From: a virus | Taxonomy: Duplodnaviria; Caudoviricetes | Direction: 5' to 3' (one strand) | Length of the DNA: 64,000 nucleotides | Virus record (IMG/VR): IMGVR_UViG_3300029305_004606 | Location: 64,001 to 128,000 of that record | Shown here: positions 2,346 through 60,946 of the stretch, piece by piece | Numbering within the stretch: the first letter of the stretch is position 1 | How the letters are laid out: every line of letters starts with the position of its first letter | Notes under the pieces: model-generated | Database searches by the model: none | What the model saw: only the letters and a program-made list of their open reading frames with translations | Told to the model about the DNA's origin: nothing | Position numbers and translations under genes: made by a program

Positions 2346-4157
2346 ATGTTTATAGACCAGGCTCAGTTTATGAGACAATTCAATGAAACTCACAGAGAAG
2401 AATTCAATCCTGAGTTATTTGAAAGAAATAATGAAGAGATTGTTGAAGCTATAAAGTCTGTTGTTATGTCATGTCAAAGAGACAAGTATTATACATTAAA
2501 ACTTTTAAGCTTCAAAGCTATCTATAAATATGAAGAGATTTATAACACTCTTAGAGATCATGAAGCTAAACGTAAGAGAAAGAACTCTAAGATTGATAAT
2601 ATCTATGATTTTATCAATATTAGAGATACAGATATGATTCTGATTAAGTTAGAATGGTTAGTAAGACACAATGGTGTTGAAAGAATTGAAGAAGATAATA
2701 AGACTATGGAAGTGGTAAACCCTGAACAGATTTTGGAAGTATTAATTGCAGTTCCTAGATTCGTTAGAAAATACTATTTCCGCTTGTCAGGAAACTTTTA
2801 TACAACCATCTTCCAGATTGTTGACGGTTCTACTTATAACAACTCTACTGCTAGCCAGAGTAAGGTTGATACTGTAACTATGAAGACAATGTTCATGCCT
2901 ATCCGTATCTTTAGAGGTTTCAATACAATGGTAGATAAAAATACTAATAAAGCTGTTAATGCTATTGAGTATCAATCTATTATCTTTAATAATGTAGTGA
3001 ATGTATTGTATTATATCCTTGCAGCTTATGGTATGTATGGTGCTATGAATTTCATGGAGATCAATTGTATTTCAATTACTCCTCATCAGTTTAATCATCC
3101 GGATTATTATTCATTCTGCAAAAATGATTCAATCTATATTAATTGTCCTAAGGTTTGTTTTGACAATGATGCAGTTGTGCAGAGTTTTGTTGCAACAATT
3201 TATGATGGAATTTCGAAGGATGTAACTGATCCTAATATGTTGTTTGATCAGAGATATTGGTTAAGAAATCTGGGTATTATTTTCAAACAGGCTACTGTAG
3301 AAAAAGGTTTATTTGTATTGGATTCTGTTGATGGAATCTATGATAATATTACCTTAAACGATTTACATCTTCCTATGAGAGATAAAGAGAATATCTATTG
3401 TGTACTTAGATGGCTCATTAGAGAATTTTCTAATCTTCGTTCAAAAGAAAATGTAGATGTAACTACAAAACGTATCCGTATTGCTGACTATATTGCAGCT
3501 GTATATGCTACAAAGTTAAACAAAGGTATTCATCGTATTTCAGATATGGGTAGCAAGGTTACTTTAAAGAAAGTTATTCAGGCTATATATACACAACCTA
3601 TGTATGTAATGAATAATATCTCTACAATGAGCAACTTGGTATCATATAGAGATTTGGTTAACGATTTGGATTCACTTACAGCTTTAAAATATACCTATAA
3701 AGGTATTTCAGGTCTTGGTGAGGATGGAGCTAGTATTCAGCCTATATATCGTTATGTAGATCCATCTCATGTTGGTATTCTTGATCTGGATGCTTCGTCT
3801 GCATCAGACCCGGGTATGTCTGGTATGATTTGTCCTATGACAAAATTATATGGTAATGATAGTTCGTTCTCTAATTATATGGAACCTAATGCTTGGAGAG
3901 AGAATTACAAACCATTTGCCGATGCTTATATGAATGGAGCCACTTCGCCTATTGTATTTGATAGACCACCAGAACAGCCTGACTATATGGCTCAAAGAGA
4001 ACAGATTGTTCAGGAAGAACTCGATATCAACAGAATTATTTGTCCTATTCAGAATATTAAGGATCCGAATATTCTGTATACTTGTTCACAGGCTATTATC
4101 GATCAGGATAATAGAAATGAACCGAAGTCTATCTTTACAATTAAAGATGAAAACTAA
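2346..4157 (+). CDS. Phage multisubunit RNA polymerase, beta subunit N-terminal half
   Basis: YFRLSGNFYTTIFQI resembles RpoB FIINGxERVxVSQL; YRYVDPSHVGILDLDASSASDPGMSG resembles [24 protein letters not shown]; the C-terminal beta motifs are absent. Confidence 0.85.
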   Translation: MFIDQAQFMRQFNETHREEFNPELFERNNEEIVEAIKSVVMSCQRDKYYTLKLLSFKAIYKYEEIYNTLRDHEAKRKRKNSKIDNIYDFINIRDTDMILIKLEWLVRHNGVERIEEDNKTMEVVNPEQILEVLIAVPRFVRKYYFRLSGNFYTTIFQIVDGSTYNNSTASQSKVDTVTMKTMFMPIRIFRGFNTMVDKNTNKAVNAIEYQSIIFNNVVNVLYYILAAYGMYGAMNFMEINCISITPHQFNHPDYYSFCKNDSIYINCPKVCFDNDAVVQSFVATIYDGISKDVTDPNMLFDQRYWLRNLGIIFKQATVEKGLFVLDSVDGIYDNITLNDLHLPMRDKENIYCVLRWLIREFSNLRSKENVDVTTKRIRIADYIAAVYATKLNKGIHRISDMGSKVTLKKVIQAIYTQPMYVMNNISTMSNLVSYRDLVNDLDSLTALKYTYKGISGLGEDGASIQPIYRYVDPSHVGILDLDASSASDPGMSGMICPMTKLYGNDSSFSNYMEPNAWRENYKPFADAYMNGATSPIVFDRPPEQPDYMAQREQIVQEELDINRIICPIQNIKDPNILYTCSQAIIDQDNRNEPKSIFTIKDEN

Positions 4158-4170
4158 AGGAGATTAAGAT

Positions 4171-4410
4171 ATGGTTTACTTCTTACATTCAGATGAACAA
4201 ATCAAAGAGAAAAATAAAATCCTGGCGAACTGTGGAAAGCAGTTCGTGCCAGGAACAGTTACAGTACAAGGTAAAAGATCTACTTTTACTCAGATTTCTA
4301 ATAACCCTAATATTGATAGATTTATCGATACAAAGGTTATTGCAAGTTTCAATAATATTGATGAGGCTACTTATATAGCTCCTACAACAACAGCTATCAG
4401 AGGTGATTAA
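4171..4410 (+). CDS. Hypothetical protein
   Basis: AAGGAG SD, 79-aa ORF in operon. Confidence 0.7.
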   Translation: MVYFLHSDEQIKEKNKILANCGKQFVPGTVTVQGKRSTFTQISNNPNIDRFIDTKVIASFNNIDEATYIAPTTTAIRGD

Positions 4411-4411
4411 A

Positions 4412-5167
4412 ATGAGAAATTTGATTAATCTATATTATAATGCTATTAGTAATAAAGCATTTGAAGGTATTAGATTGGTAAGAGAATTTTTCACAAAAGA
4501 CGGAGACATGTCCAGTTTCAGAAAACTGCGTTCATCTAATATAAGTTTACAAGAAAAAGTTATTTTAACAAGTCTTGACGAAAAATTGAAAATATCTGAA
4601 GAAGATTATGTTCATAATGGATATCTTGCATCTAATGGAGATAGATATATTTTTGTAGATAATCTCGATTTCACTTCAATTTTGTGCACTAAATTTCAGA
4701 CAGTAACAAAACAACCAAATGGAACTAATTTTATTTCAGATATATCTATATTCTTTATCAGTCGTAATTTGTTGAAAAACTGTGATGATAAGCAGGTAAT
4801 TTATACTTGTTATAAAATTGCTCAATGGTATTTCAAGATCTCATTAACGGATATAAATAATAGTCCAATAGCAATATCCGCTTATAGATCAGGATCAGAA
4901 AATATTTTTGACAAAAGAGATATATATGGTAGAGATGATAAGATTTTTTACGTGAATTATCTTATTACTATGATTATGATTTTAGACGTTATGTTTAATT
5001 TCAAATTCAATGATATTATGTTATTTATAGAATCTATATTTACATCTTGTCCATTTTGGTTATCAACAGAAGCTTTTAAAGGTATTTTTGAATATGCTAT
5101 TAATGAGCAACCTGACGATTCAGACTATGTTTTGATATTTAGAGAAATATTTAAAGAGAATAAATAA
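4412..5167 (+). CDS. Hypothetical protein
   Basis: GAGGTG SD before ATG 4412. Confidence 0.7.
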   Translation: MRNLINLYYNAISNKAFEGIRLVREFFTKDGDMSSFRKLRSSNISLQEKVILTSLDEKLKISEEDYVHNGYLASNGDRYIFVDNLDFTSILCTKFQTVTKQPNGTNFISDISIFFISRNLLKNCDDKQVIYTCYKIAQWYFKISLTDINNSPIAISAYRSGSENIFDKRDIYGRDDKIFYVNYLITMIMILDVMFNFKFNDIMLFIESIFTSCPFWLSTEAFKGIFEYAINEQPDDSDYVLIFREIFKENK

Positions 5168-5174
5168 ATTATAT

Positions 5175-5202
5175 GCTAGAAGAGGGGTAACTCTCTTCTA
5201 GC
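5175..5202 (+). terminator. Hairpin / intrinsic terminator
   Basis: GCTAGAAGAG...CTCTTCTAGC followed by TATTATTT. Confidence 0.6.
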
Positions 5203-5226
5203 TATTATTTATAGGAGGAATAAATC

Positions 5227-5556
5227 ATGTTAGGAATTGATATGAATATAAAATTGGATGTAAAGAGAGTTACCTCACCTATATATTTTCAACACAGAAA
5301 TGAATGTGTAAGGTGCGGAGCTAAAGGTAAACTCGTTTTTATAGATAGATTTGGAAGAGAATGTACAAGAGAAGTTAATGCGTTAGAGCATATTAAATGT
5401 ACAAACTGTGGTAAGTTATATTCTATTCTTTGGGAACCTAAAGAAGGGACTGATAAGTTAATGCCTTCTCCGATTGATACAAGTATTTCAGTTGATTTTA
5501 TGAATCTGGTTAGATTTAATAAACTTAAAAAAGATGGAGAGAATATTCTTTGTTAA
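5227..5556 (+). CDS. Zinc-ribbon protein
   Basis: CVRCG...CTNCG pair; AGGAGG SD. Confidence 0.7.
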   Translation: MLGIDMNIKLDVKRVTSPIYFQHRNECVRCGAKGKLVFIDRFGRECTREVNALEHIKCTNCGKLYSILWEPKEGTDKLMPSPIDTSISVDFMNLVRFNKLKKDGENILC

Positions 5557-8646: not shown

Positions 8647-9768
8647 TTAATACTGAGAAACAATATTATCATTAAGAACAATGATAGGAAAAGTTTCATT
8701 CAGGTTAATATTCTTTGCAATCTTTGTCTTAAGATCAAGAGTTGTATCTTCCATAAACATCTGATCATAAACAGGAACATTAGGAATTGCTTCTCCTGTT
8801 CTTACATTCATAACTTGGAAGAATTTTGCACCGGAAGCTGCATCATATACAACAACTTGTTTAACATCAGGATTACCTTCATATCTCATCATGTTCTGTT
8901 CAGGTGTCATATTAGCAACATAATTAAGATATCCAGCATCCATAATAGGCTGACCAGGATTGCTAACCATATCAGGAGTAAGATTTGCTCTTACAATACC
9001 AGAACCCATTATAGCAGGATCAATCATAGGCATCTGATACTGAGGTGCTGAATTATTAGGATTCTGAATAAATGCCTGATAAATATCAGAAATATATTTA
9101 TCATCATTCATGGTAGCTTGAGCTGCTTCGATATCCTTACGTTTCTTGTAATCCATATCATTGGCTTTTGTAATACAGTTATTGATTTCTTTGATTGCAG
9201 AAATTCTGTTACCAATCATAGCACCAATATTTTCAGATAATCCTGTTAATATACCATATTTATTCTTCAGAGTTCTATTATGACGAACCGCATTGAACTC
9301 TTGAACAAGTTCCCCATTTACAGCATCAATCTGTCTTAATGTTTCGTGTAACAAATTATTTGTTTCTCCATAACTGTAAATGGTGCCTGCTTCAACAAGT
9401 TCTGTTCCATTTACAACTTCAGCATCAGCTTTTACAATAGCTGTCTGTTGTTTAGTAGCAGGAAGACTAGAACCGCCTCTTTTTCTTCTCTTCTTCTCTT
9501 CTGCTTCCATATCAGAAATATTATCGACTTTGATTTTCATTGAATCATCTTCGATTTTAAATAAAGATGTCTTAGTTTCTCCCATAGTAATTGCAGGAGT
9601 TTCAAAGACTCTAGGATCTACAGCAGGTTTGTGTTGTACAACCTGAGGTGCCTGCTGACCATAACCATATGGATTTTGATTCATAGCAAACTGAGGTTGC
9701 TGATAAGGATCAATTCCAATTCCATTACCATAACCTACAGGCATCATACCATTGTTCATATATTGCAT
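8647..9768 (-). CDS. Hypothetical protein with Q/Y/G/P/M-rich low-complexity N-terminus and coiled coil
   Basis: GGAGG SD on minus strand; promoter-like CACA-N6-TAAT at 9844-9831. Confidence 0.8.
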   Translation of the reverse strand: MQYMNNGMMPVGYGNGIGIDPYQQPQFAMNQNPYGYGQQAPQVVQHKPAVDPRVFETPAITMGETKTSLFKIEDDSMKIKVDNISDMEAEEKKRRKRGGSSLPATKQQTAIVKADAEVVNGTELVEAGTIYSYGETNNLLHETLRQIDAVNGELVQEFNAVRHNRTLKNKYGILTGLSENIGAMIGNRISAIKEINNCITKANDMDYKKRKDIEAAQATMNDDKYISDIYQAFIQNPNNSAPQYQMPMIDPAIMGSGIVRANLTPDMVSNPGQPIMDAGYLNYVANMTPEQNMMRYEGNPDVKQVVVYDAASGAKFFQVMNVRTGEAIPNVPVYDQMFMEDTTLDLKTKIAKNINLNETFPIIVLNDNIVSQY

Positions 9769-9922: not shown

Positions 9923-11911
9923 ATGGGAATGATACCTGAGTTAGAGTGTAGATATCCAGAAGGTTCAGATATTACAGTTATGAATACTTACTATCGTTAT
10001 CCTGAATTTGAAGAAGGTAAAAAAGTTTGTGATGATCAAATATTTATCATCTATAAGGATAATAAAACAAAAAAGAAAGACTTTCTGGTTATTACAAATC
10101 CTGATTATACTTTCTATAAGATTAAGGATGGAATTGAAGTTCCACCTTATAGTCAGCTCTTCATTGAAAGAGAAAAAGTTGAACCTATAACAGTTCCATT
10201 TCATAAATTGGAATTAAACTTAGCAAAGGCTACAGGAATGGAAGAGTTCTATAAACAGAACTTAATGAATAGAAATAAAAGGGCTAATCAGGCTCTTCAC
10301 AGTGACCCATCATTATTCTATTCAGATGCAAATATTGAAGATCATTATAGATTTAAGTTTGCTAATACATATAGCAACGAAATTTATAAGATTACTAAGG
10401 GATTCTTCGATATAGAAGTAGATGGTAAATGGGCAAAAGGTGATTTTGTTGAAATGGGAGAATGTGCTATCAATTGTGTATCTTATTATGATGAAGGTAC
10501 AGATACAGTATATACTTTTGTTTTAAGAGACGAAAGAAATCCTCAAATTCAACAACTTGAAGATTCATTTAAATCAGGTAAATTTGGTTGGAATGAAATT
10601 CATAAATTTGTAGTTGATGCGGTTGGTGGTATAAAAGCTGCTACAAAATATGGACTTATGAAGACTAAATTTTGTCCAATGTTTTATGATAGTGAAATTC
10701 AACTCATTGCAGATTTGTTTGAAACGATGCATAGAACATGTCCGGACTTTATTGAGGGTTGGAACTCCAGTGGATTCGACTTGGAATATATTATAGCCAG
10801 AGTAATAGCTCTTGGATATAATCCTGAAGATATATTATGTGATCAGAGATGGAAAGATAAGGTCGTTAAGAATTTCGTTGATCATCAACATCAAAACGAA
10901 TTGGCAGAACGTGGTGATTATACTTTTATTTCCGGATTACCTGTATTTCTTGATCAGATGATTCAATATGCTTCAAGAAGAAAATCTAAGATTGGTTCAT
11001 ATAAATCATTCAAATTAGATGATATTGGTTTGAAAGAAGCTAATGTAAGAAAGTTGGATTATCATCATATAACTGATTCTGTTACAGAATTACCTTGGTT
11101 AGATTTCAAGACATTCTTTTTATATAACATCATGGATGTTATTGTTCAGAAATGTATTGAAGCTCAAACTAATGACTTAGAATATATCTTCTCTAAGTGT
11201 GTAGTTAATAATACAGTATATAAGAAAGGTCATAGACAGACAGTATATCTTATCAATCGTATGGCTGCTGACTGGTATAAGATGGGTTATATTATTGGTA
11301 ATAACTGTAACAAAGAGAACCCTAAACCTCCAAAATATCTTGGAGCATTGGTAGGTGATCCTACAAAGACCAATGAATATTCAAAGATGATAATCGATGG
11401 TAGAGCAATTTGGGTATGTGAGAATTTGCTTGATTACGATTTTAAATCATTATATCCAAGCCTTATGGGTGAATATAATATTGCACCTAATACTCAGATT
11501 GGTAAGATTATCATTGATGAGAAGGTATATAAAGATGAAAACTATTATCATATCGAGGAAGAGAAATATTCTCGTGGAGGCGAGTTTATAGAAAATCTTG
11601 TTACTGATAATATGATTGAATTCTGTACAAGATGGTTCCATCTTGGAAATATTCAAGAAGTATTGTTTGATATGGACGAATATTATGAGAAAAAGTTTGG
11701 TCTTGGAAGATATAGTAATCTTATCTCAGCAGGATTTGGTAATATAGATTCAGATAAACCATTTGCTTATAGTCCTATTATTCCTACATCTTATAAGCCA
11801 GAATCTCCAATTGAATTTAATGCTCCTAAAGCTGAAAGTCCAATTATATTCCTTAATCAGAGACCGGATAATATGACTTATGAAAAATTACTTGAAAGTA
11901 AGAAAGGTTGA
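9923..11911 (+). CDS. Family B DNA polymerase, N-terminal piece (3'-5' exonuclease plus motif A) of a split enzyme
   Basis: ExoI FFDIEVD, ExoII GWNSSGFDLEY, ExoIII YNIMDV, motif A DFKSLYPS; no KxxxNSxYG or DTDS. Confidence 0.88.
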   Translation: MGMIPELECRYPEGSDITVMNTYYRYPEFEEGKKVCDDQIFIIYKDNKTKKKDFLVITNPDYTFYKIKDGIEVPPYSQLFIEREKVEPITVPFHKLELNLAKATGMEEFYKQNLMNRNKRANQALHSDPSLFYSDANIEDHYRFKFANTYSNEIYKITKGFFDIEVDGKWAKGDFVEMGECAINCVSYYDEGTDTVYTFVLRDERNPQIQQLEDSFKSGKFGWNEIHKFVVDAVGGIKAATKYGLMKTKFCPMFYDSEIQLIADLFETMHRTCPDFIEGWNSSGFDLEYIIARVIALGYNPEDILCDQRWKDKVVKNFVDHQHQNELAERGDYTFISGLPVFLDQMIQYASRRKSKIGSYKSFKLDDIGLKEANVRKLDYHHITDSVTELPWLDFKTFFLYNIMDVIVQKCIEAQTNDLEYIFSKCVVNNTVYKKGHRQTVYLINRMAADWYKMGYIIGNNCNKENPKPPKYLGALVGDPTKTNEYSKMIIDGRAIWVCENLLDYDFKSLYPSLMGEYNIAPNTQIGKIIIDEKVYKDENYYHIEEEKYSRGGEFIENLVTDNMIEFCTRWFHLGNIQEVLFDMDEYYEKKFGLGRYSNLISAGFGNIDSDKPFAYSPIIPTSYKPESPIEFNAPKAESPIIFLNQRPDNMTYEKLLESKKG

Positions 11912-11918: not shown

Positions 11919-12551
11919 ATGTTTGTAATTGATCCTAGATTGGACCAGGTACAAAAAATTGTAGAAAGTTTGGTTACTAAGAGTTTGTTGCCTAATACAA
12001 ACTGCTTGGTAACCAGCGATAATACTCTTGTACTATTAGTCGATGAAACTTTATTATATATAATTCATTTGAGAGATGAACTTTGTTATCCATCATTGGG
12101 ATTTTCTTATTCCAAGTTTATGTACGAGGTATCGAGTAGATCTATTACAGATTTTAATATATCTTCATTAGATATATACGATACTTTAATAACAACAAAA
12201 CTTCTTAATTATTATGCTTCCTATTATGGTTATATATTTGAGGAAGCTGTACCTGTAGCTGTAAATAATGATTTAAAAACAGACGAATCATTTTCTGATT
12301 ATCTCAATATTAAATCAGATGATGGTATGAAATACTACAGACTTCCTGCATTACAACCTGGAAAACAATATATGATTCCTATATTTACAGGATTTCCTAA
12401 TATCACTTCACAAGATAAGTTAGGAATATATGTCTATGATATAGGTAATAGTTTTCTAATTGGAAGATTTAAAATCTTTAAGAAGAAAATCAATAGAGAT
12501 ATCAATATATTCTTCAGAATGCTTGATATAACTGGAGGTATACTAAGATGA
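11919..12551 (+). CDS. Hypothetical protein
   Basis: 210-aa ORF directly after polB. Confidence 0.7.
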   Translation: MFVIDPRLDQVQKIVESLVTKSLLPNTNCLVTSDNTLVLLVDETLLYIIHLRDELCYPSLGFSYSKFMYEVSSRSITDFNISSLDIYDTLITTKLLNYYASYYGYIFEEAVPVAVNNDLKTDESFSDYLNIKSDDGMKYYRLPALQPGKQYMIPIFTGFPNITSQDKLGIYVYDIGNSFLIGRFKIFKKKINRDINIFFRMLDITGGILR

Positions 12552-13237
12552 TGAAAAGAGATATAATAGAAGAAATTATTGCTCAAAGCAACTTCAAACC
12601 TGATAATATTGATCAAGTTAAAGCTTTTACTAACTCATATATTGAGCATCTTGTCAATGTACTCAAATTAGAAGATAAAGATTATATCATATATATTAGT
12701 GGTCCTGTCACTAATATTGAAGATTATGAGAAAAGATTCAATGGTATTGAATTTATTACTTACCAGGCATTCTCGGCATATAATATCTATGTAATAAATC
12801 CTGTACAAGTGTTAAATTTGATAGATAAACATTTTGAGTTCACCTATATCGACAAAGTGTTTATATGTTATGCTTTATTATCAATTGCTAATGTAATGAT
12901 TTATGATAATAGAGATAATAAGTGGGAAAAGAGTATGGGCACATTTACTGAAATTTCTTTTGCAATGGGTAAAGGTATTGAAGTTATTGACTATATGTAT
13001 GTCAAAAACACTCTTAATGCTAGAAATCTTATTATTACAGATACACCTATTTTGCTTCTTAAACAGTCATTAAAATCTCCGAAAGAATTAATGGAAGATA
13101 CCGCAGCTAGAGAAGCATTAGGTGCTGTTAAATCGGATGATGAAGAGGTTGTAGAAAAAGAACCTGAAAAAAGAGACTTTGTAGAGATTGTAAGAGATAT
13201 GGCTGAAATTAATAAGATGAACAGAGAATCAAAATAA
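12548..13237 (+). CDS. Nucleoside 2-deoxyribosyltransferase-like (DUF4406-type) protein
   Basis: IYISGPVT...F...INPV...WEKSMGTFTE pattern. Confidence 0.6.
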   Translation: MMKRDIIEEIIAQSNFKPDNIDQVKAFTNSYIEHLVNVLKLEDKDYIIYISGPVTNIEDYEKRFNGIEFITYQAFSAYNIYVINPVQVLNLIDKHFEFTYIDKVFICYALLSIANVMIYDNRDNKWEKSMGTFTEISFAMGKGIEVIDYMYVKNTLNARNLIITDTPILLLKQSLKSPKELMEDTAAREALGAVKSDDEEVVEKEPEKRDFVEIVRDMAEINKMNRESK

Positions 13238-16462: not shown

Positions 16463-16587
16463 TATATTAATGTTTATATCTATAATTTACCATTATTACT
16501 ATTCTAATAGTAGTAGATTATCAATTTTTGTTCCATTTTCTGTTCACTTAATAATAAAATGAGAATTTGCAGGAGGTGAATTGCTGT

Positions 16588-16872
16588 ATGAAAGAATATT
16601 TCATCTTATATGGTACAAAAGATAATGATACTTTCTATATCAGTAATACAAATCCTGTGATTTGGACTTCTGATATAAAAGAATCTAAACTATATCATCT
16701 TAGATATACAGCAGAGTTTGAAGTATTAAGAGATTATGATAATTATAGATCTATTATAAGTTTGATAAATAATAAAAAACTTGACTGCTTGTATGTATCT
16801 CAAATTCAAATAGAGATCAATGATGATAATAGTAAAGAATATGTTGAGAAAGGCAGGGTTAAAATATTATGA
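16588..16872 (+). CDS. Hypothetical protein
   Basis: AGGAGG SD before ATG 16588. Confidence 0.7.
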   Translation: MKEYFILYGTKDNDTFYISNTNPVIWTSDIKESKLYHLRYTAEFEVLRDYDNYRSIISLINNKKLDCLYVSQIQIEINDDNSKEYVEKGRVKIL

Positions 16873-18417: not shown

Positions 18418-19497
18418 TTGGCTGTAACAAGTACTGGTAATCGAAGAGGTAGACCTAGAAAAGACTTAACTCCTATGGATAGAGCTAAAATGCAGCTCAC
18501 AGATGATATAGTTAACAAACTTAAATACAATGCGGAATTATCAGATGAACAGATTTTCTTATTGAAACAAACTTTAGATGATACGTTTAAGTCTTATGAT
18601 TTTGAAAAACAAGAAGATTGCGAAGACATGTCTATTCAAGATATTAATAACGAAGCTATGCAGTTATTTTTACAATCTAAACGTGCAGAATCAAAATCAA
18701 AGACTACTATATATAATTACGGTAATGAATTGTCAAAATTATTTCTTATTATAAATAAAGATTATAGACAGATTACAGCTCAAGATATAAGAGAATATAT
18801 GGATTATCGTAGAGAGCATGATAAAGTTAAACCTATCACTATTCAGAACATTCGTATGTATTTAATGAGCTTTTATAAATGGGCTGTTATAGAAGAAAAG
18901 ATATTAAGAAATCCTATGGACAAAATAGGAACTATAAAAAGAGAGCAAAAAGTTATAGAAACATTTACAGATGAAGAAGTAGAAATGCTAAGATGTGCTT
19001 GTAAGAATGAAAGAGATTTAGCAATTATAGATTTATTAAGTTCTACAGGTATGCGTGTATCAGAACTTACAGGATTAAATAAAAGAGATGTAAACTTTGA
19101 AACTGGAGAAGTTAAAGTTTATGGTAAGGGTGCTAAGGAACGTATTTGTTTCCTTACAGGTCGTGCAAAGATTCATCTCAAATGGTATTTGGAATCTCGT
19201 GTTGATAATAATGAAGCTTTATTTGTTACTGCTAAAAAACCATATACAAGAATTACAAAAAATGGTGTTGAATATGCACTTAAAGAATTAGGAAAAAGTA
19301 GTGGACTTACAGTAACTGAACGTGTATTTCCTCATAAGTTCAGAGCAACATTAGCTACAAATATGCTTAATAAAGGTGCAGATATAGCAGATATACAGCA
19401 TATATTAGGACATCAATCTTGCGATACAACGTTACAATGTTATGCAAAGATGGAGAAAGATACTATAAAGAAAGCTCATAAGAAATATATTCATTAA
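18418..19497 (+). CDS. Tyrosine recombinase (XerC/D-like)
   Basis: STGMRVSEL, VYGKGAKER, PHKFRAT, ILGHQS, TTLQCY catalytic set; core-binding domain; N-terminal RRGRPRK. Confidence 0.93.
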   Translation: MAVTSTGNRRGRPRKDLTPMDRAKMQLTDDIVNKLKYNAELSDEQIFLLKQTLDDTFKSYDFEKQEDCEDMSIQDINNEAMQLFLQSKRAESKSKTTIYNYGNELSKLFLIINKDYRQITAQDIREYMDYRREHDKVKPITIQNIRMYLMSFYKWAVIEEKILRNPMDKIGTIKREQKVIETFTDEEVEMLRCACKNERDLAIIDLLSSTGMRVSELTGLNKRDVNFETGEVKVYGKGAKERICFLTGRAKIHLKWYLESRVDNNEALFVTAKKPYTRITKNGVEYALKELGKSSGLTVTERVFPHKFRATLATNMLNKGADIADIQHILGHQSCDTTLQCYAKMEKDTIKKAHKKYIH

Positions 19498-20840: not shown

Positions 20841-21293
20841 ATGAGCGAAGTAAAAACAAATATTCCACAAATGAAAATTAGATATCACAGAGAAATGTTT
20901 CCTGAATTGCCTGACGTTGTTCAGCATGGTAACTTTATCGATCTTTATAATGCAAAAGAAGTAACTCTTAAGGCTGGAGAATTTGATTATATTAGTCTTG
21001 GTATTTCAATAGAATGTCCTGAAGGATATTGGTTCCAGTTAGTACCTCGTAGTTCAACATTTGCAAAATACGGTATTATTCAGACTAACTCCTTCGGAGT
21101 TGTAGATACAAAATATTGTGGAGATGATGATATAATTGCAATGCCTGCATATGCTGTGAGAGATACAGTTATTCCTGCTAATGAAAGAATTTGTCAGTTT
21201 AGATTGGTAAAAGATATTGAATTTATTATCAATGAAGTTCCTAAGCTTGAAAATGAAAATAGAGGCGGATTTGGAGTTTCAGGAAGGAAATAA
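20841..21293 (+). CDS. dut: Trimeric dUTPase
   Basis: Motifs IDL, PRSS, GVVDTKYCG, ERICQ, NRGGFGVSG. Confidence 0.9.
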   Translation: MSEVKTNIPQMKIRYHREMFPELPDVVQHGNFIDLYNAKEVTLKAGEFDYISLGISIECPEGYWFQLVPRSSTFAKYGIIQTNSFGVVDTKYCGDDDIIAMPAYAVRDTVIPANERICQFRLVKDIEFIINEVPKLENENRGGFGVSGRK

Positions 21294-21297
21294 TTAT

Positions 21298-22503
21298 ATG
21301 AGTAAAAAATTTCCCGGCGGTATAGATTCCAGAGCAAGTAATAGATTTCATTACTGCTCTGGAACCGATACTCTTGTTGAAGTAAATACTATATTTTTTG
21401 ATGAAAATCACAAAATACATTCATTTGGTACATCTATTGGAGATAGATTTAATTTGGTTCCTTCTGAACAAATATTTCATTCTCCTTATGGATCGTATTT
21501 TAAAGATTATATTCTCGAAGATCTTTTTTATCTTGGTTATATAGATAGAAAACATTATCTTACTGTAAAATTCTGTGTAGATATTACAGAAAGTTCTATT
21601 TTCAAAAACTCTATCAAGTGCTTTATTGAAAATAATCATAATAAGCTTTCTAAGGCAGAAATACATACATGTGGCGAAGTATGGACAAATGGTATGGAAA
21701 TAGCTATTTGTAACTTGGTTGCTAAGAAATATTATAGTAACGAAGAAGTAGAAAAAAGAAATGCTAAAAAGAATCCGGGTAAATTAATGAAAGAATATTC
21801 TGACAAAGATATGACTTCTGATGTATTATCTAAACTAAGAAAACCTTTTATAGAAATTCGTTGTTCATACAATAGTGTCGAAGATATGATAAAAGATAAA
21901 GATAGTTTGGATAGTGGTTCTATTATTCATATTCACGGTTCTGATAAATTCTACTACAAAGATACAGATGGAGAATTTTCATTTTTATACTGTTCTAAAC
22001 CAGAAAATGATTTAATACCTAATGATTATACAATCTCTTGGGGTAGTTATTTTATGGGTATTGCTCAATTGGTTAAGAAACGTTCCAAAGATCCTGCTTG
22101 TAAAGTTGGTGCTTGTATTGTAAGAGATAAAAAGATTCTTTCTACAGGTTATAATGGATTTCCTCGTGGTATAGATGATGATAAATATCCTTGGACTAAA
22201 GATAGCAATGATCCTACTAAGAATAAATTCTTTTATGTGGTACATGCAGAGTTAAATGCTATATTAAACTCTGACACTCCTGTTACAGATGCAGAGTTAT
22301 ATGTAACAAAATTTCCTTGTAATGAATGTGCCAAAGCTATTATTCAGTCAGGTATCAAGAAGATTATTTATAACGATGACAAAGATGATCCTGTATTATT
22401 TAATGCAGAAAAGAACAAAGTAACACTATCAATGCTTACTGATGCAGGAATTGAAGTGGTTAGATATTGTCCGATTAGATATAACGAATTAATTCGTCTT
22501 TAA
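21298..22503 (+). CDS. dCMP deaminase with long N-terminal extension
   Basis: RSKDP..KVGACIV, TGYNGFP, VHAELNA, FPCNECAK in the C-terminal about 160 aa. Confidence 0.88.
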   Translation: MSKKFPGGIDSRASNRFHYCSGTDTLVEVNTIFFDENHKIHSFGTSIGDRFNLVPSEQIFHSPYGSYFKDYILEDLFYLGYIDRKHYLTVKFCVDITESSIFKNSIKCFIENNHNKLSKAEIHTCGEVWTNGMEIAICNLVAKKYYSNEEVEKRNAKKNPGKLMKEYSDKDMTSDVLSKLRKPFIEIRCSYNSVEDMIKDKDSLDSGSIIHIHGSDKFYYKDTDGEFSFLYCSKPENDLIPNDYTISWGSYFMGIAQLVKKRSKDPACKVGACIVRDKKILSTGYNGFPRGIDDDKYPWTKDSNDPTKNKFFYVVHAELNAILNSDTPVTDAELYVTKFPCNECAKAIIQSGIKKIIYNDDKDDPVLFNAEKNKVTLSMLTDAGIEVVRYCPIRYNELIRL

Positions 22504-35342: not shown

Positions 35343-35343
35343 A

Positions 35344-39266: not shown

Positions 39267-39393
39267 TCTTTTCTTTATCCGGGGCAAAAATAACTGCCCC
39301 GGATTCTTTTTTGCTATTTTATTAGTAGTAATTGTAAGAAAATACATCGTTATTGACATATCTATAATAAATATATGAAAGGATGTAGTAACG

Positions 39394-41123: not shown

Positions 41124-41137
41124 ATTAAAAGAGGTGA

Positions 41138-41329
41138 ATGTCAATGAATATTATGGAGAACAATCCTAACAATGTACTTAAGCCTAATCTTAAGACATTA
41201 TTAGCCGAGCGTCAGGAACTTGATGCAGAGAGAAAAGCTAGTAAGAGTTTCTTTGAAAGAATGAAAATCTCTAGCAAAATAGCTGCAGTTGATAAGCAGA
41301 TAGCTAGTATTGATCTGAAGACCAAGTAG
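41138..41329 (+). CDS. Small hypothetical protein
   Basis: GAGGTG SD. Confidence 0.6.
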   Translation: MSMNIMENNPNNVLKPNLKTLLAERQELDAERKASKSFFERMKISSKIAAVDKQIASIDLKTK

Positions 41330-41377
41330 TACTATGATTATATATTATAATTATGGTATAAAAGGAGGCATATAATT

Positions 41378-42769
41378 ATGAGATCAGAAGATTTTTATAC
41401 AGGAGAGCCGGTAGTAACTGGCTCTCCGATTTCATTTTCAGAAAATATGGTACCATCTAATAATGATGTTACAGAAGCAGCAAATATGGCAGCTTTTGGA
41501 GCATATGCATATGATCCTGGTATGAGACAACAATTAATGACACCTGGTGGATATGGTTATGGAGTAAGTCCAAACTTTATGAATCCACCAACTCAGTTTG
41601 GAGGTGTAGTATATCAACCTCCTATGTATGGAATAGGAGCACCACCTAGTCCATATGGAAATATTCAGCCTAGTTATAACATATATCGTCCTAATATGCC
41701 CAATCCTGCAATGCAGATGGGTATGGTGCAACCTCAATATCAGCAAGTACCAACTCAGTATCATATTCCTGGAGTGAATATGGGTGGTGAATATATGCCA
41801 CCTGCAGATTTTGAACAAAGATTATCTGAATTAGAAATGGCTTACTATTCCAAAGTAATTAATCAACAGGCTATAGATGAAGTAAACATGTCCATGAATC
41901 AATCTGTATACGGTTATGGATATAATGGTGGGTTTAATTATTATGGAATGCCATTCTATAATCAGTATCAGTATTCTTCTGCAGATTTAGAACTTAGACG
42001 AGCTGTAGAAGCTATGCAGCAGGAAGCTAGAGATAATCGAATGGCTTTCAATATGCAAATGTCAAGACTTGCTCACAACTTCAGTGGTCATGAAATTACG
42101 GACGAGCAAATCAGAGAAAGATATGAAGGTAGAACAATTGATATTCCTCAGCAAAGCGGAATAGTTGTTACACCTCAAGATTATTGGGAAATCGGAAGGT
42201 TCTATCAAACAGAACCGTTTGATAATTCTCAAATGTATAGAGATCATTTCAATAGAGTTAGAGAAGAGTTCCAAAAGATTATTCCAGCAAACTCAGATCT
42301 TCAATCTACTTTCAGTAATATGGGTATTGTTGCAGCCCAGTATGAAATGGAAGAGGAGATGCATAGAAGACGAGATGGTGGAAACCTCTATAATAACACC
42401 GATAATGCTTATAAGCGATTAATTCGTAAGAAAGCAAAAGAAAGATATGCAGCTGAAAAAGGTATAGTATTATCAAATACTGGAGCTGCTCTTCCTAATT
42501 TCTCTGCTCAGCAAGCTAAGCAGAATTTTATATCTAACTCTACTCTGTCAAACTGTGCAACTTTGCAGGATGATGGAACATTGAATGTATCATTAAGATT
42601 ACCTTGTAATGTAGGAAGTCATGCTGGACAAATGTATGAAGTGAACAGTCAGGAGTCTCAGTATGATGAAAAGAGAGCAAGATTTGGACAGTTTATCGAT
42701 TCGATTCCCGGTTCTATATATTTAGATCAAAAGAAACGGGAAAAGATGGAGGATTATAAGTATGAATGA
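41378..42769 (+). CDS. Hypothetical protein with prion-like Y/G/Q/P/M-rich N-terminal region
   Basis: Promoter motif at 41338, AAGGAGG SD; GGYGYG, YQPPMYG, YGYGYNGG. Confidence 0.8.
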   Translation: MRSEDFYTGEPVVTGSPISFSENMVPSNNDVTEAANMAAFGAYAYDPGMRQQLMTPGGYGYGVSPNFMNPPTQFGGVVYQPPMYGIGAPPSPYGNIQPSYNIYRPNMPNPAMQMGMVQPQYQQVPTQYHIPGVNMGGEYMPPADFEQRLSELEMAYYSKVINQQAIDEVNMSMNQSVYGYGYNGGFNYYGMPFYNQYQYSSADLELRRAVEAMQQEARDNRMAFNMQMSRLAHNFSGHEITDEQIRERYEGRTIDIPQQSGIVVTPQDYWEIGRFYQTEPFDNSQMYRDHFNRVREEFQKIIPANSDLQSTFSNMGIVAAQYEMEEEMHRRRDGGNLYNNTDNAYKRLIRKKAKERYAAEKGIVLSNTGAALPNFSAQQAKQNFISNSTLSNCATLQDDGTLNVSLRLPCNVGSHAGQMYEVNSQESQYDEKRARFGQFIDSIPGSIYLDQKKREKMEDYKYE

Positions 42770-47259: not shown

Positions 47260-48093
47260 ATGAAAAATCCGGCAATAGATATAGCAAAATCTGTAAATTA
47301 TTTATCTCCTTCTAGATTAATATCTGGAAGGATAGTAGAATATGATATCAAAGCTGCAAATATTTCGTGTTTAAGACAAACAGGATTTATTACAGAGGAA
47401 GATTATCAATATCTTTTAAGATTACCTAAGAAACAAAGAGAAATAGAAATAGGTCTCAGAATAAAACAAGATCCAAAGGTATATACTAATATCCAGAAAG
47501 GTATTAAATGGGCTAAGGAACAATTAGTTACTGTAAATAATATACAAGAAGATCAGATTGTTAGAATTGCTAATGATGCTGTGTATATCAATACTCTTGT
47601 TGATTTACCAATAATTAAATTTGGAGATTATATACAATTTGTTCCTAAGTCAGTTTCAAATATATATCTTAATCTAAACAAGACAATAGTATTATTAAAT
47701 TTTCATCAAGATGGAAATATATCAGTAGATGTAAAAGGTATCGCTGATAATCAGATTCCTTTGCATGAAAATTATATAATCAATGCTATTGTAACTTGTA
47801 TAGTTTATATAGAAAGGTCAGGTATTCAAGAAGCTGTAGCTTACTTGTCAGATTTATGTCAGCATTATGTAAGATATGATTTACCAATAGGATATTATAG
47901 AGAATTCAATGCTTTTTCGTGTTACAGAATAAAGAATATATTTGGTCCTTATAATCCTTTTAATGGTGATACATTTGGTGCTGATAATCTTAACGAAGCT
48001 GACAAATATTCGCTTGATATTAATTATAATTATTCTGTACTTAGAGAATTATGGTCTATATTGCTTGAAATTTACAGTTTCAGAATACATTAA
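47260..48093 (+). CDS. Hypothetical protein, possible minimal polymerase-palm fold
   Basis: IVEYDIKAANIS (motif A-like) and IANDAVYI (motif C-like). Confidence 0.4.
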   Translation: MKNPAIDIAKSVNYLSPSRLISGRIVEYDIKAANISCLRQTGFITEEDYQYLLRLPKKQREIEIGLRIKQDPKVYTNIQKGIKWAKEQLVTVNNIQEDQIVRIANDAVYINTLVDLPIIKFGDYIQFVPKSVSNIYLNLNKTIVLLNFHQDGNISVDVKGIADNQIPLHENYIINAIVTCIVYIERSGIQEAVAYLSDLCQHYVRYDLPIGYYREFNAFSCYRIKNIFGPYNPFNGDTFGADNLNEADKYSLDINYNYSVLRELWSILLEIYSFRIH

Positions 48094-48120
48094 AATTCTA
48101 TAAGCCGAGAACATATATGT

Positions 48121-48268
48121 AATGCTATCTGGAACAAGGGCGTGCGGACAGTTGGCAGGTGCGATTATTCTTACATATACTAAGTTCTTGACTTTGGTGT
48201 GAACTATGTAACCCCAAGAAGACCCCTAGAGCTTCGGCGGCTCTAGGGGTCTTCGTTTCTTTTTTTAT
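48121..48268 (+). ncRNA. Candidate small RNA
   Basis: AACA-TATATG-TAAT at 48110-48123, GC-richer body, hairpin 48217-48254 plus T-run; no SD-led ORF. Confidence 0.4.
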
Positions 48269-48269
48269 T

Positions 48270-48722
48270 TTAAGATAAAGTGGATGAATTGAAAGCTGAT
48301 ACTTGATCAACTGCAATTGATTTTACTTTAGAATTGATAAACTTTAATAGATCTTCATCATTAGAAATATTATATATCATTTTAATATAGAAAATATATA
48401 ATTCCGAGATTTCAAGAGCTATAACTTTAGTAATATCTCTTACCATAATCTCACAATCTTCTTCTTTAATATATTCAATCTTTCTAACTATAAACTTCAT
48501 AGAAATATATCTTTGAATATATCTCTCAAAATATTCATCAATATATTGATTGATAGATTCAATCGATAGAACACTGAAAAGATTATATTTTTCGTTTTTG
48601 ATCTTCATTTCTTCCAATTTATTTTTTGGCTCTAAGTAATTCTTAGTAATATAAATTGTACTCCATGTACAGAAAGACAATACTAATATAATTACTATTA
48701 ATAAAAATATATAATTCATCAT
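48270..48722 (-). CDS. Membrane-anchored hypothetical protein
   Basis: N-terminal TM YIFLLIVIILVLSFCTWSTIYI. Confidence 0.7.
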   Translation of the reverse strand: MMNYIFLLIVIILVLSFCTWSTIYITKNYLEPKNKLEEMKIKNEKYNLFSVLSIESINQYIDEYFERYIQRYISMKFIVRKIEYIKEEDCEIMVRDITKVIALEISELYIFYIKMIYNISNDEDLLKFINSKVKSIAVDQVSAFNSSTLS

Positions 48723-57660: not shown

Positions 57661-57803
57661 ATAAAAACATTGCTTATAAAGTTTTACATTTACTAGTAGA
57701 CTTTATCGTCTACTAGAGTTTTTATTTTGTTTTATATATAGCGATTTTTCGAACTTTATATTAATATCAGTGACTAATTTAATTAGTCGGAAGGAGAGTA
57801 ATT

Positions 57804-59123: not shown

Positions 59124-59137
59124 ATGGAGGTATTCTC

Positions 59138-60085
59138 ATGAATGCATATGTAAGTGAATCTGTTCGTGCTATGCTTGAACAGAAACAGATTTCTAATATT
59201 TCTGAATCATTTGGTGATTATGCTTTATCAGAAGATGCTCAGGCTATTAGATCAAGAATCAATGATATTGTTACTAAAGGTTCATGTTCTATTGTTGAAA
59301 TGAATGAAGTGATTACAAGTATCAAAGATTCTAATTTATCAGAATCTACTCAAAGATTTCTGGTTAAGAAGATTTTCAACATCTTTAATGAAGCAGATGA
59401 AGAAGAATTTGTAGAAGAAGGTATTGCTTTACTTGGTAATACTAAATTTGATGGAGATCCGGTTAAAAATGCAGAATATATCGCTCTGCTTAAAGAAATG
59501 GACAAATTTGTTGCTCATCTTGTAGATTTATTAGATGCAGATTTTGATATTGCAGACGATATTCTTAATATTCTTGAAACTTCAGCTAAGAGTGCTAAGA
59601 ATAAAGAGGATATCGATAAATGTATTTCTAATTGTCTTAACAGATTTGATGCTGGAAATAAGAAATATAATCAGGATCTTTATAAGGAATATTATCAGAA
59701 GTTTGTTAAATTTAATAGAATCGGTAAGAGTTTCAATAATAGATACTCTAAGATTACTATGGCTGAAAAGAAAATTATTGATGAGAAATTTGATAAGATT
59801 CTTGGAACACTTTATGGTGATATTATCAGAGATTGGTTTAAGTTCGAAGCTTTCAACAATGATACACCTAAGACAGATAAGCTCAATGCAGCTTGGTTAA
59901 AGCTTAAAGAAATTGACAGAGATAAAACTGTTGAACTTTCTAACAGAATTCTCAATCCTATGTATAACTATCTTGCTAAGAGCTGGTCTCAGACAGTTAA
60001 CAATGTTAATTATATGAGAAAAATCTTAGGTATTGAGCTTGAAGATACTATCAAATGGAAAATTGTTCATAAATTGTATAAGTAG
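59138..60085 (+). CDS. Putative internal virion protein
   Basis: N-terminal region rich in VSES/ISES/LSED/LSES/FNEA/VEEG, like cleaved propeptides. Confidence 0.5.
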   Translation: MNAYVSESVRAMLEQKQISNISESFGDYALSEDAQAIRSRINDIVTKGSCSIVEMNEVITSIKDSNLSESTQRFLVKKIFNIFNEADEEEFVEEGIALLGNTKFDGDPVKNAEYIALLKEMDKFVAHLVDLLDADFDIADDILNILETSAKSAKNKEDIDKCISNCLNRFDAGNKKYNQDLYKEYYQKFVKFNRIGKSFNNRYSKITMAEKKIIDEKFDKILGTLYGDIIRDWFKFEAFNNDTPKTDKLNAAWLKLKEIDRDKTVELSNRILNPMYNYLAKSWSQTVNNVNYMRKILGIELEDTIKWKIVHKLYK

Positions 60086-60095
60086 AATAATAAGT

Positions 60096-60121
60096 CCGGT
60101 GGAGTGATAAACTCCACCGGA
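60096..60121. terminator. Terminator between convergent genes
   Basis: TCCGGTGGAGT...ACTCCACCGGA plus T-run. Confidence 0.75.
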
Positions 60122-60124
60122 TTT

Positions 60125-60946
60125 TTACCGTTTTATTAAACTAGGATCAAACGAAATAGGACAAATTACTTCTTTCTTTTGAACTATTGGTGTAGAATTT
60201 TTATCTTCTATACTAGGAAGAATATAATTATTATTTCTTATCTCATTCATTTGTTCAATCATAGCAGTATTAATACCAGACATATCAGGAAGCATATAGT
60301 TTTGATCAGTGATTTGATAAGTTACTCTATTTTCATCTAATATAGTAGTATTAAGAATTCTACTTTGTTTTTCTTCAGTATACTTTTCTATCCTATCTAA
60401 TATTTCTAATAAACCAGGTTCTATAAAAGGCTCATAATATTGAACAAATACATTATATCTTCCTAATACTTTGTCGGCAGGAATAAATAATCTACTAGCA
60501 TGAGATACTTGATGTACAGTTTCAGATAATGATATAAGTCCAATTATTAATTTATAATGAGCAATCATAACTTCTTTTGCTACCATTTGAACTTCAAGTG
60601 ATTCATTATAATATTTTCTCTTATTTACAACTATTTCAGTTATATCGTGAAGAGAAAAAGGATAATGATGAATTTCAATCTTAATATCAAAAGTTTCAGT
60701 ATTATCTACTCCTTGAATAAAAGCACATTGATTCATTTGCATATAATCTCTTATATATGCTATAAATCTTCTATATTCAAAACTTCTTCTTACAGACTTT
60801 TCTATATCATCTATATAATGCTTATAACTTTTTTCATCTTCTAGACAATAACATTCAAAATCACATACCGGTATTTCTGCATTTGCAATTATAATTTTAT
60901 TTGGTAGATTACTTTCTTGTATTTGTATTCCATCAGGATCAATCAT
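60125..60946 (-). CDS. Hypothetical protein, HNH-like His pattern; paralog of 48719-49492
   Basis: RRSFEYRRF...QCAF...IEIHH...LHDI...LSETVHQ. Confidence 0.7.
   Translation of the reverse strand: MIDPDGIQIQESNLPNKIIIANAEIPVCDFECYCLEDEKSYKHYIDDIEKSVRRSFEYRRFIAYIRDYMQMNQCAFIQGVDNTETFDIKIEIHHYPFSLHDITEIVVNKRKYYNESLEVQMVAKEVMIAHYKLIIGLISLSETVHQVSHASRLFIPADKVLGRYNVFVQYYEPFIEPGLLEILDRIEKYTEEKQSRILNTTILDENRVTYQITDQNYMLPDMSGINTAMIEQMNEIRNNNYILPSIEDKNSTPIVQKKEVICPISFDPSLIKR

Follow-up and report, generated by a model that had tools for sequence, protein, structure and literature searches.

A recurrent PIxF peptide on replication and transcription proteins of an AR9/PBS1-related phage, and a clamp-fold gene behind its polymerase

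We analyzed a 64,000-nucleotide stretch of phage DNA (the window, by which we mean this whole stretch; bases 64,001 to 128,000 of IMG/VR record IMGVR_UViG_3300029305_004606) in which a short peptide of the form P-I-x-F (PIxF, here called the tag) recurs in the tails of unrelated proteins that replicate or transcribe DNA. The source contig, designated G000, is 200,990 bp long with 31% G+C, and window coordinates are genome coordinates minus 64,000. A preliminary description of the window had interpreted it as a phage-specific docking peptide by which enzymes are brought to a single hub. Enrichment of the peptide, its conservation, and its concerted replacement in other lineages support the docking part of that proposal; the identity of the hub is our interpretation, and the candidate that we favor is a clamp-fold protein encoded directly behind the DNA polymerase.

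Tagged proteins of the replication and transcription module

The family-B DNA polymerase (PolB) of this phage is nearest to those of AR9/PBS1, Staphylococcus phage S6, and Yersinia phage phiR1-37 (27% identity), which are uracil-DNA jumbo phages. Three RNA polymerase (RNAP) subunits match chains C, c, and D of the AR9 non-virion RNAP (nvRNAP; PDB 7S00; E values of 2e-82, 3e-29, and 8e-42) and match PhiKZ far more poorly. Hundreds of nearer relatives, with PolB homologs of 56 to 89% identity, come from metagenomes only, on contigs of up to 267 kb. The tag, or a sequence resembling it, was located in the following proteins.

Window 3..656, plus strand (C-terminal part; whole gene at genome 62239-64656): NAD ligase, two copies in an N-terminal extension before the adenylation domain
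Window 2346-4157, plus strand: nvRNAP beta N-half, 603 amino acids (aa), with SPIVF (3945-3959) and ICPIQN (4035-4055) in the C-terminal tail
Window 5227-5556, plus strand: Zn-ribbon protein, 109 aa, with SPIYF at residues 17-21 (5275-5289), just ahead of the first CxxC
Window 9923-11911, plus strand: PolB N-subunit, 662 aa, with SPIIP (11771-11785), SPIEF (11804-11818), and SPIIF (11837-11851)
Window 21217-22503: dCMP deaminase open reading frame (ORF) with CPIRY at the C-terminal end, a candidate copy by sequence match
Window 39394-40107, plus strand: RNase H1-type protein, 237 aa, with DPLIF at residues 220-224 (40051-40065) in the C-terminal tail
Window 40164-41123, plus strand: 319-aa protein with VPITF at residues 16-20 (40209-40223), a motif match only
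Window 41378-42769, plus strand: 463-aa protein with SPISF at residues 16-20 (41423-41437), a motif match
Window 60125-60946, minus strand: PHROG 12252 protein, 273 aa, with the C-terminal end ICPISFDPSLIKR and CPISF at 60149-60163
Genome 34019-35908: divergent DnaB, two copies at the extreme C-terminal end (Pfam and motif)
Genome 37725-39875: part of nvRNAP beta', C-terminal tail (motif and AR9 match)
Genome 40292-41920: SF2/ResIII helicase, two copies in the C-terminal tail (Pfam and motif)
Genome 47942-48523: 193-aa protein, N-terminal end (motif)
Genome 59308-61533: nvRNAP beta C-half, three copies in the C-terminal tail with an 11-residue period (motif and AR9 match)
Genome 153042-153527: RusA, N-terminal end

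All of the motif instances in the preliminary description were found in coding frames where it had placed them, and for two of the carriers only the naming of the protein changed. The protein described as RNAP beta has the tail that was claimed and is the beta N-half subunit of the nvRNAP; it matches chain c of the AR9 enzyme over query residues 128 to 510 (PDB 7S00; E = 2.9e-29), and the tail lies past this core. The protein described as PolB carries its three tail units, spaced 11 residues apart, and matches Pfam DNA_pol_B_exo1, but it is an exonuclease plus partial-palm subunit of the DNAP-N type (DNAP, DNA polymerase) rather than an entire polymerase. The two ligase copies, IICPIEFVPP (residues 120 to 129) and TSPIEFE (residues 160 to 166), are encoded just upstream of the window, and the Pfam domains of the ligase begin past them, at residue 218. 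The 319-aa protein is without a family match in Pfam or PHROG. RusA and the PHROG 12252 protein have nine residues in common, PISFDPSLI, at the N-terminus of RusA, and encode them with different codons.

Two of the instances originally counted as tags need qualification. CPIQN in the RNAP beta-N tail belongs to a separate conserved element, CP[IV]xN, and the N-terminal SPISF of the 463-aa protein has no clear counterpart in the sole orthologue seen (L040, 23% identity). CPIRY and the sequences described for a kinase linker (SPISI/APIV) are candidate copies. The separate element in full is [IV][IVT]-C-P-[IV]-x-N-[IM]-x-D-P (window 4035-4070), a second element of the RNAP beta-N tail that lies ∼30 residues past the tag and in which N replaces F. 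Another tag-like sequence occurs in a 101-aa protein (window 16567-16872), where a seemingly invariant block s-N-T-x-P-[IVL]-[IL]-W-T is present in 7/7 orthologues; because this block has W in the motif and lies in the middle of the protein, it is probably part of the fold.

Enrichment, conservation, and recoding of the tag

Tests of enrichment used the 209 ORFs (61,918 aa) of the entire 200,990-bp genome, with 400 within-protein shuffles as the null model. PIxF occurs 21 times, compared with 7.1 expected and a maximum of 15 in the 400 shuffles; [S/C]PIxF occurs 12 times (0.56 expected; shuffle maximum, 3) and IxPIxF 10 times (0.65 expected). None of the 400 shuffles reached any of these three counts. 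The same pattern emerged without prior choice: when all gapped 4-residue patterns were listed (∼1.6 million, Bonferroni corrected), IxPIxF was the leading dispersed pattern, with 10 copies in 9 proteins (p = 9e-10), and SPIxF, ICPI, and PIEF were among the other leading ones. Set aside in this listing were A/T/S repeats, which come from only three to seven repeat-rich proteins, together with zinc-knuckle patterns and charge runs of the EExKK type. The suggestion that the motif exceeds its composition-matched background thus holds by both approaches. A fuller consensus is [I/T]-[S/C/V]-P-I-[E/S/T]-F-[V/D]-x-P, and KKEIICPIEFVPP is an example of a tag peptide.

The motif acts at the protein level. 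Its copies use different codons for Ser (TCT, TCG, TCA, and AGT), Pro (CCA, CCT, and CCG), Ile (ATT, ATA, and ATC), and Phe (TTT and TTC), and the codon at the x position varies as well, which places the signal in the protein sequence. We reject a promoter, repeat, or other element acting as DNA on the grounds of this variation in synonymous codons and at x.

Copies of PIxF concentrate near protein ends, with 13 of 21 at most 30 residues and 16 of 21 at most 80 residues from a terminus (expected fraction for the latter, 0.47; p = 0.007). The claim that they lie outside folded cores agrees with the Pfam limits of RNase H (the RNase_H domain covers residues 26 to 167 of the 237-aa protein), RusA, DnaB, ligase, and helicase, all of which exclude the tags, and with the PDB-matched regions of the RNAP subunits, whose tagged tails reach past the segments aligned to the AR9 nvRNAP chains of 7S00. 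NrdD and NrdG, earlier noted as lacking the tag, do lack it, and the genome-wide motif scan found none in the structural proteins or in a 1,703-aa protein resembling virion RNAP (vRNAP). A virion packaging signal is rejected, as the tagged RNAP subunits are of the non-virion type (AR9) and the 1,703-aa vRNAP-like protein is untagged. Literature searches returned no published description of a PIxF tag, in agreement with the preliminary description.

Close relatives keep the tag in place, as a docking peptide was expected to be kept in orthologue tails. Among 89 aligned full-length orthologues of the PolB tail, the P is present in 72 to 80 sequences, I/V/L in ∼84, and F in 73 to 77, and the spacer columns are full of indels with no residue above 38/89; two of the prolines, P629 and P640, do not vary at all within a subset of 41 sequences. 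The RNAP beta-N tail has P[IV]xF at the same position in 4/5 orthologues and CP[IV]xN in 5/5, and the Zn-ribbon N-terminal end keeps P[IV]xF in 4/5 orthologues, the fifth having an N-terminal extension. Taken over relatives of 38 to 69% identity, P-[IVL]-x-F is kept in place in the RNAP beta-N tail, the Zn-ribbon N-terminal end, both helicase copies, and the RNase H tail; the RNase H orthologue of L040 has PVHF at the same tail position. A metagenome scan with the helicase as the query yielded one locus.

More distant lineages carry a different peptide at the same sites, and several proteins changed it together. Genome G001 (224.6 kb; PolB 41% identical) has no excess of PIxF. Its RNAP beta-C tail consists of six units of the DLFYFLDP, ELFVDV, or KLFVPV type, 11 residues apart; GLFKYMGD ends its beta' subunit, GLFVYVP lies in its DnaB tail, and in its ligase loop ALFMFQP aligns exactly with IICPIEFVPP of G000. 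Genome G004 uses [KP]LFHK[IF]: RNAP beta', RNAP beta-N, and the helicase all terminate in it, the PolB tail contains three copies, and the RNAP beta-C tail has it as well. A small protein of G004 begins with MKRLFHKI, comparable to the tag at the Zn-ribbon N-terminal end. G007 has PIxR[YVF] three times in its PolB tail, and its PHROG 12252 orthologue ends with CPIIRI, the motif of that lineage. The all-pattern listings of G001, G004, and G007 were dominated by repeat-rich structural proteins, and the tags of these genomes were found via orthologous tails. In G006, IxPAxI was itself the top widely dispersed pattern of the whole genome, with 15 copies in 12 proteins compared with 0.7 expected; its sites are the DnaB C-terminal end, the helicase C-terminal end (two copies), the ligase loop, the RNAP beta-C tail, the N-terminal end of an SbcD-like protein, and many small proteins.

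The pattern was also used in a forward test, in which a motif read from the RNAP tail should recur in the adjacent ligase of the same lineage. It did so in 4/4 lineages fetched (L041 to L044). NPFKK in the RNAP tail of L041 corresponds to NPFVK and NPFRR in its ligase (p = 1e-6), PFTI of L042 recurs twice (p = 1.3e-5), IFPL of L043 recurs once (p = 6e-3), and IxPAY of L044 corresponds to IIPAR and TPAL (p = 1e-3); in L044, moreover, IIPAYVN ends RNAP beta-N and MIIPAIV begins the Zn-ribbon protein. The ligase tag site is kept with its sequence swapped in G001, L041, L042, L043, L044, and G006, and in all, at least eight other lineages carry their own motif at the same places (LFxF, LFHK, NPFKK, PFTI, IFPL, IxPAxI, and PIxR among them). 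We also compared 150 RNAP beta-C representatives taken from all public proteins. Most of the ones that exceed 700 aa terminate in two to six tandem short hydrophobic units, and these units differ by lineage.

It is hard to explain how unrelated proteins would swap the same peptide together unless they meet a shared, co-evolving receptor, and from these sequence comparisons we consider it very probable that the tag is a docking peptide with one such receptor. Recoding between close relatives further suggests that the receptor is probably encoded by the phage and is not a conserved hub of the host.

A clamp-fold protein as candidate receptor

The gene directly behind PolB encodes a small protein to which the preliminary description, in naming a clamp as one possible hub, had not pointed specifically.

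Window 11919-12551, plus strand: clamp-fold protein, 210 aa, 7 nucleotides downstream of PolB

This protein has no Pfam or PHROG match. Its AlphaFold2 model, built from a 26-sequence alignment, has two domains and scored well (predicted local distance difference test [pLDDT], 89.8; predicted template modeling score [pTM], 0.85). The best 50 rows of a Foldseek comparison with the PDB were all bacterial beta clamps/DnaN (best E value, 6e-4), and the top 38 rows of a VIA-align comparison held only clamps or clamp-fold processivity factors, after which Z was ≤4.8. T4 gp45, which like the model is a two-domain clamp protomer, was the lead VIA-align match and best structural match (Z = 9.1; 178 residues aligned); other clamp matches included 9-1-1, the African swine fever virus clamp, PCNAs, DnaN, UL44, UL42, PF-8, and BMRF1. 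BFVD yielded uncharacterized myovirus proteins of ∼200 aa (E = 3e-9) and phage beta clamps, along with proteins of ∼500 aa labeled ribonuclease H. One of these is from Myoviridae sp. (E = 1.6e-3; probability, 1.0), and the others (E = 6e-3 to 2e-2; probability, 0.94 to 0.96) are from Erwinia phage Wellington, Ralstonia phage RP12, and Pseudomonas phage Noxifer, three phages that we take to be chimalliviruses. On the basis of the model, we confidently predict a sliding-clamp fold. One of the hub types named in the preliminary description, a clamp, is thus present as a predicted clamp-fold gene beside PolB, and its role as the receptor is our reading of the evidence below.

A clamp-like gene lies behind PolB in seven close relatives and in G001-type phages, often overlapping the PolB stop codon, and a profile of it found the same arrangement in 11 further IMG/VR loci. 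The clamp-like proteins are 28 to 40% identical where the adjoining PolB proteins are 61 to 70% identical, from which it follows that the clamp-like protein evolves fast. The profile had no match in AR9 or PhiKZ. AR9 also lacks the PolB and RNAP tails, and its PolB gene is followed by an RNase H gene; a sequence search with the RNase H of G000 had no match in AR9 or PhiKZ.

We give about an even chance that the 210-aa protein is the receptor of the tag. It is proposed because the carriers are the kinds of protein that clamps serve in T4, archaea, and eukaryotes and overlap with the reported partners of Rhc, a chimallivirus protein discussed below. The position of the clamp-fold gene next to PolB, kept across lineages, argues in the same direction, and so does AR9, which is without the PolB and RNAP tails and without a detectable clamp-like gene. 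A Rosetta-stone hint comes from the chimallivirus fusion of RNase H to a clamp domain, since here a tagged, free RNase H may meet a free clamp-like protein. Under this reading, the tag would be displayed on disordered N- or C-terminal tails, or on the ligase loop, of DNA-handling enzymes, and every copy would bind the same receptor, a phage product with a pocket that has co-evolved with the tag to give each lineage its own code. A clamp-like protein on replicated DNA could then act as a tool belt, gathering polymerase, primer-removal, sealing, resolution, and helicase activities, and it might also tether the late RNAP, coupling late transcription (or priming by the RNAP) to replication. Tandem copies, three in PolB and three in RNAP beta-C with an 11-residue period, would raise avidity.

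Several known systems work in a comparable way. In T4, LDFLF peptides on the polymerase C-terminal end, in a ligase loop, and on the RNAP cofactor gp33 bind the same gp45 pocket, and RNase H probably does so too (PMC6212786). The (S/T)LDFLF peptide of the T4/RB69 gp45 system (gp43 C-terminus, ligase loop, gp33, gp55, and RNase H) is, like the tag, common to polymerase, ligase, nuclease, and late transcription, and the G001-type tags DLFYFLD and ALFMFQP resemble it. The tag differs from the T4 peptide in having the form PIxF with a fixed Pro, in being attached directly to core subunits of the RNAP as well as to DnaB, an SF2 helicase, and RusA, and in often being tandem; moreover, no loader of the gp44/62 type was detected here, and the binding of clients is predicted. 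PCNA with its PIP box (QxxLxxFF) and the bacterial beta clamp with its own motif (QL[SD]LF) follow the same tool-belt logic, with terminal or loop motifs that lead to one clamp pocket, and N-terminal placement of the PIP box occurs, for example, in human ligase I. The tag has no match to either consensus, and it is recoded between close lineages, whereas theirs are kept across domains of life.

Phages of the PhiKZ type were noted to have no classical clamp, and jumbo phages with multisubunit RNAPs of their own had been considered to be without one (Iyer et al. 2021, PMC7824862). In the chimallivirus protein Rhc, an RNase H is joined to a clamp-derived domain that is monomeric, and the protein boosts the split PolB (October 2026 preprint, PMC13648687). 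Pull-downs with Goslar Rhc recover three nvRNAP subunits along with both halves of the DNAP, and an AlphaFold screen pairs PhiKZ Rhc with the polymerase C-half (DNAP-C), a RuvC-like resolvase, and PicA (October 2026 preprint, PMC13648698). Rhc (PhiKZ gp155, Goslar gp190) resembles the present case in that it comes from jumbo phages with multisubunit RNAPs and a split PolB and is a clamp-fold polymerase accessory linked to nvRNAP and a resolvase; predicted structures of putative Rhc proteins are among the BFVD matches of the 210-aa protein. The differences are that here the clamp-fold protein is free-standing beside DNAP-N and the RNase H is separate and tagged (39394-40107), while Rhc contacts DNAP-C through folded surfaces and was not reported to use a shared peptide motif. 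A profile of the 210-aa family finds nothing in PhiKZ that would mark Rhc as a sequence homolog.

The herpesvirus proteins UL42, UL44, and BMRF1, all three among the fold matches, are loader-less clamp folds bound by the C-terminal tail of a family-B polymerase; there, essentially only the polymerase uses the tail contact, whereas a dozen or more proteins are tagged here. The tip of the bacterial single-stranded DNA-binding protein (SSB; DDDIPF) offers another hub system built on a short acidic/hydrophobic peptide that ends in Phe and serves many replication and repair enzymes. Its polarity is reversed, in that the SSB hub carries the peptide and its clients carry the pockets.

A number of observations weigh against the clamp as the receptor. 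The tag is unlike the canonical clamp motifs QxxLxxFF, QL[SD]LF, and LDFLF, as it lacks Gln and a double aromatic and contains a fixed Pro, and only the G001-type variant resembles LDFLF. The chimallivirus clamp domain is monomeric and binds DNAP-C via a large folded interface, not via a peptide (PMC13648687). Three to six tandem copies and up to ∼15 carriers, including the many small proteins of G006, are more than the typical clientele of a phage clamp. In G001, the PolB tail PKYEFE is unlike the LF-type tags on RNAP, DnaB, and ligase, which may indicate more than one pocket or receptor, and co-variation of the clamp gene with tag type is inseparable from phylogeny in this sample. No clamp loader was found in the probably incomplete G000 contig, where PF13177 matched nothing and PF00004 matched only a Dda-like helicase. 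Clamp-fold factors that are free of a loader do exist, UL42 and Rhc being examples. Finally, the G000 contig seems incomplete, and the receptor could be the product of an unseen gene.

The ends of contig G000:C1 are perfect inverted repeats (fold-back ends), and DNAP-C is absent from the contig in BLAST and phmmer searches. Relatives encode DNAP-C (G001, 184879-186984; L035, 2635-4860). From the inverted-repeat ends and the missing DNAP-C, we conclude that the 201-kb assembly is probably a fold-back or incomplete version of a genome of ∼220 to 260 kb.

Other genes of the module were observed alongside the carriers. PolB and RNAP beta-C are split in several relatives (the IMG/VR PolB loci L045 to L048, L059, and L060, as well as G004:C1:218696-222865 and G006:C1:117532-120169), where a second piece follows a truncated ORF 1 to 2 kb off, an arrangement that points to introns, inteins, or the insertion of homing endonucleases. 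Downstream of PolB, several relatives (L030, L031, L034, and L035) encode ThyA or ThyX plus DHFR, whereas the same slot in G000 holds a nucleoside 2-deoxyribosyltransferase-like gene (window 12548-13237); given this exchange, members of the clade may differ in thymidine or uracil DNA chemistry. A tyrosine-integrase-like gene lies within the replication module (window 18418-19497; PHROG 1, E = 8.5e-51), and its L034 orthologue has Phage_integrase Pfam domains. A Sigma70 region 4 domain (E = 3e-7) is present in a 509-aa protein (window 36143-37672), an unusual feature for a phage with multisubunit RNAPs of its own.

Alternative receptors and significance

Besides the clamp-fold gene, a second gene adjoining PolB encodes a candidate hub.

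Window 8647-9768, minus strand: 373-aa protein adjoining PolB, the alternative hub candidate

It consists of a disordered, prion-like N-terminal region of ∼130 aa that is rich in Q/N/P/Y/G/M, a long helical hairpin of coiled-coil type (residues 133 to 235), and a small alpha/beta C-terminal domain. None of its 339 homologs has a family. Its AlphaFold2 model, with a domain-level pLDDT of ∼80 and low confidence overall, has no fold match in the PDB; the protein may be a scaffold or mediator. Other hub candidates (301-aa, 252-aa, and 168-aa proteins and others) have no Pfam or PHROG match, and for the 252-aa protein the ESM Atlas gave only a sub-threshold Whirly lead (0.82). The 301-aa protein (226 to 240 aa in relatives; window 1379-2284), conserved between ligase and RNAP beta-N, has a strongly acidic C-terminal tail and an isoelectric point of 4.5, features that recall phage SSBs.

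That the tag docks onto another phage hub, such as the 373-aa protein as a scaffold or condensate organizer or the product of a gene missing from the contig, is in our view unlikely. Tandem tags would then be multivalent "stickers" in a replication-transcription factory, which fits both the tandem arrays of three to six units and the large number of carriers, small proteins among them; the 373-aa protein is conserved, syntenic with PolB, and of scaffold-type architecture, and the contig without DNAP-C is probably incomplete. However, this protein is without a known peptide-binding fold and, at 50 to 60% identity in clade A, is better kept than expected for a receptor that changes specificity, and a clamp is the textbook receptor for exactly such enzymes. 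A related reading takes the tag not as a clamp motif but as a lineage-coded address label read by a scaffold, condensate organizer, or import/partition factor, which we hold to be possible though doubtful. The receptor would then bring together at a single site all of the machinery for replication, recombination, and late transcription, and rewriting of the code in each lineage might bar co-infecting relatives or host decoys from that machinery; if true, this would be the first linear localization-signal system described in phages. Its more specific form, a linear import or retention label for a phage-made replication compartment, appears improbable. The carriers do belong to protein classes that are nuclear in chimalliviruses while the metabolic NrdD and NrdG are untagged, relatives encode tubulin next to a UvsX-like gene, and the PhiKZ clamp protein Rhc is itself predicted to contact the importer PicA. 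Yet the PhiKZ shell protein gp54 (chimallin) finds no homolog in G000, G001, or AR9 in what is a weak, single-sequence search with a very divergent family, and the RNAP is much nearer to that of AR9, whose group we take to be non-nucleus phages, than to that of PhiKZ. The UvsX-like, Dda-like, and SbcC proteins are untagged though they would also need import, as are two ORFs of ∼785 aa that are presumably topoisomerase II subunits, and we know of no linear import signal in nucleus-forming phages.

Docking onto a hijacked host hub (beta sliding clamp, SSB, or RNAP) seems quite improbable. The hydrophobic-x-aromatic pattern is loosely like the last residues of beta-clamp hexapeptide motifs, and phages without a loader could use the host clamp and loader; but the tag has no Gln and no match to QL[SD]LF, and it changes wholly between related phages (PIxF, LFHK, PFTI, IFPL, and IxPAxI). 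The binding motifs of bacterial beta clamps and SSB are nearly universal, and set against this, the rapid recoding of the tag points to a fast-evolving receptor encoded by the phage. We attach very little probability to a degron or chaperone tag for the timed removal or folding of early and middle proteins: extreme terminal sites on many unrelated proteins are found with many degrons, but internal ligase-loop copies and tandem arrays are unusual for them, the carriers are restricted to DNA-handling proteins, and the late RNAP must persist. Chance, compositional bias, or a DNA-level element at gene ends carries a negligible probability. The motif was indeed chosen post hoc by eye, and regulatory DNA does lie at gene ends, but the motif survives the Bonferroni-corrected listing of all patterns, its count is reached in 0/400 shuffles, its codons and x position vary, it is kept in 89 orthologues, and ligases from four further lineages showed the swap that their RNAP tails had predicted.

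Apart from these interpretations, the tubulin gene of the relatives lies just upstream of the UvsX-like gene at G001:C1:37003-38298, L041:7191-8537, L043:4200-5480, and L044:6299-7477, with a Pfam Tubulin match in L043 and L044; no tubulin was found in the G000 contig.

The principle of a docking motif is already known from the clamp motif, the PIP box, and the gp45 motif. The motif itself is new, as are the way in which it is recoded from lineage to lineage and the finding that RNAP core subunits, DnaB, and RusA carry it. Also new is the clamp-fold gene that stands on its own, which places a predicted clamp fold next to the polymerase in an AR9/PBS1-related clade that is large, mostly metagenomic, and at least partly from the gut. 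If the clamp-like protein is the receptor, its probable clients could be read from sequence via the common tag, including late RNAP core subunits, DnaB, and RusA, and the tag would allow function guesses for the small carriers of unknown function. With at least eight tag codes at orthologous positions, the clade offers a natural experiment in the co-evolution of motif and receptor, and in practical terms the codes may supply orthogonal peptide-receptor pairs for synthetic biology. For the biology of these phages, the tags on RNAP point to a direct physical coupling of late transcription, or of priming by RNAP, to replication.

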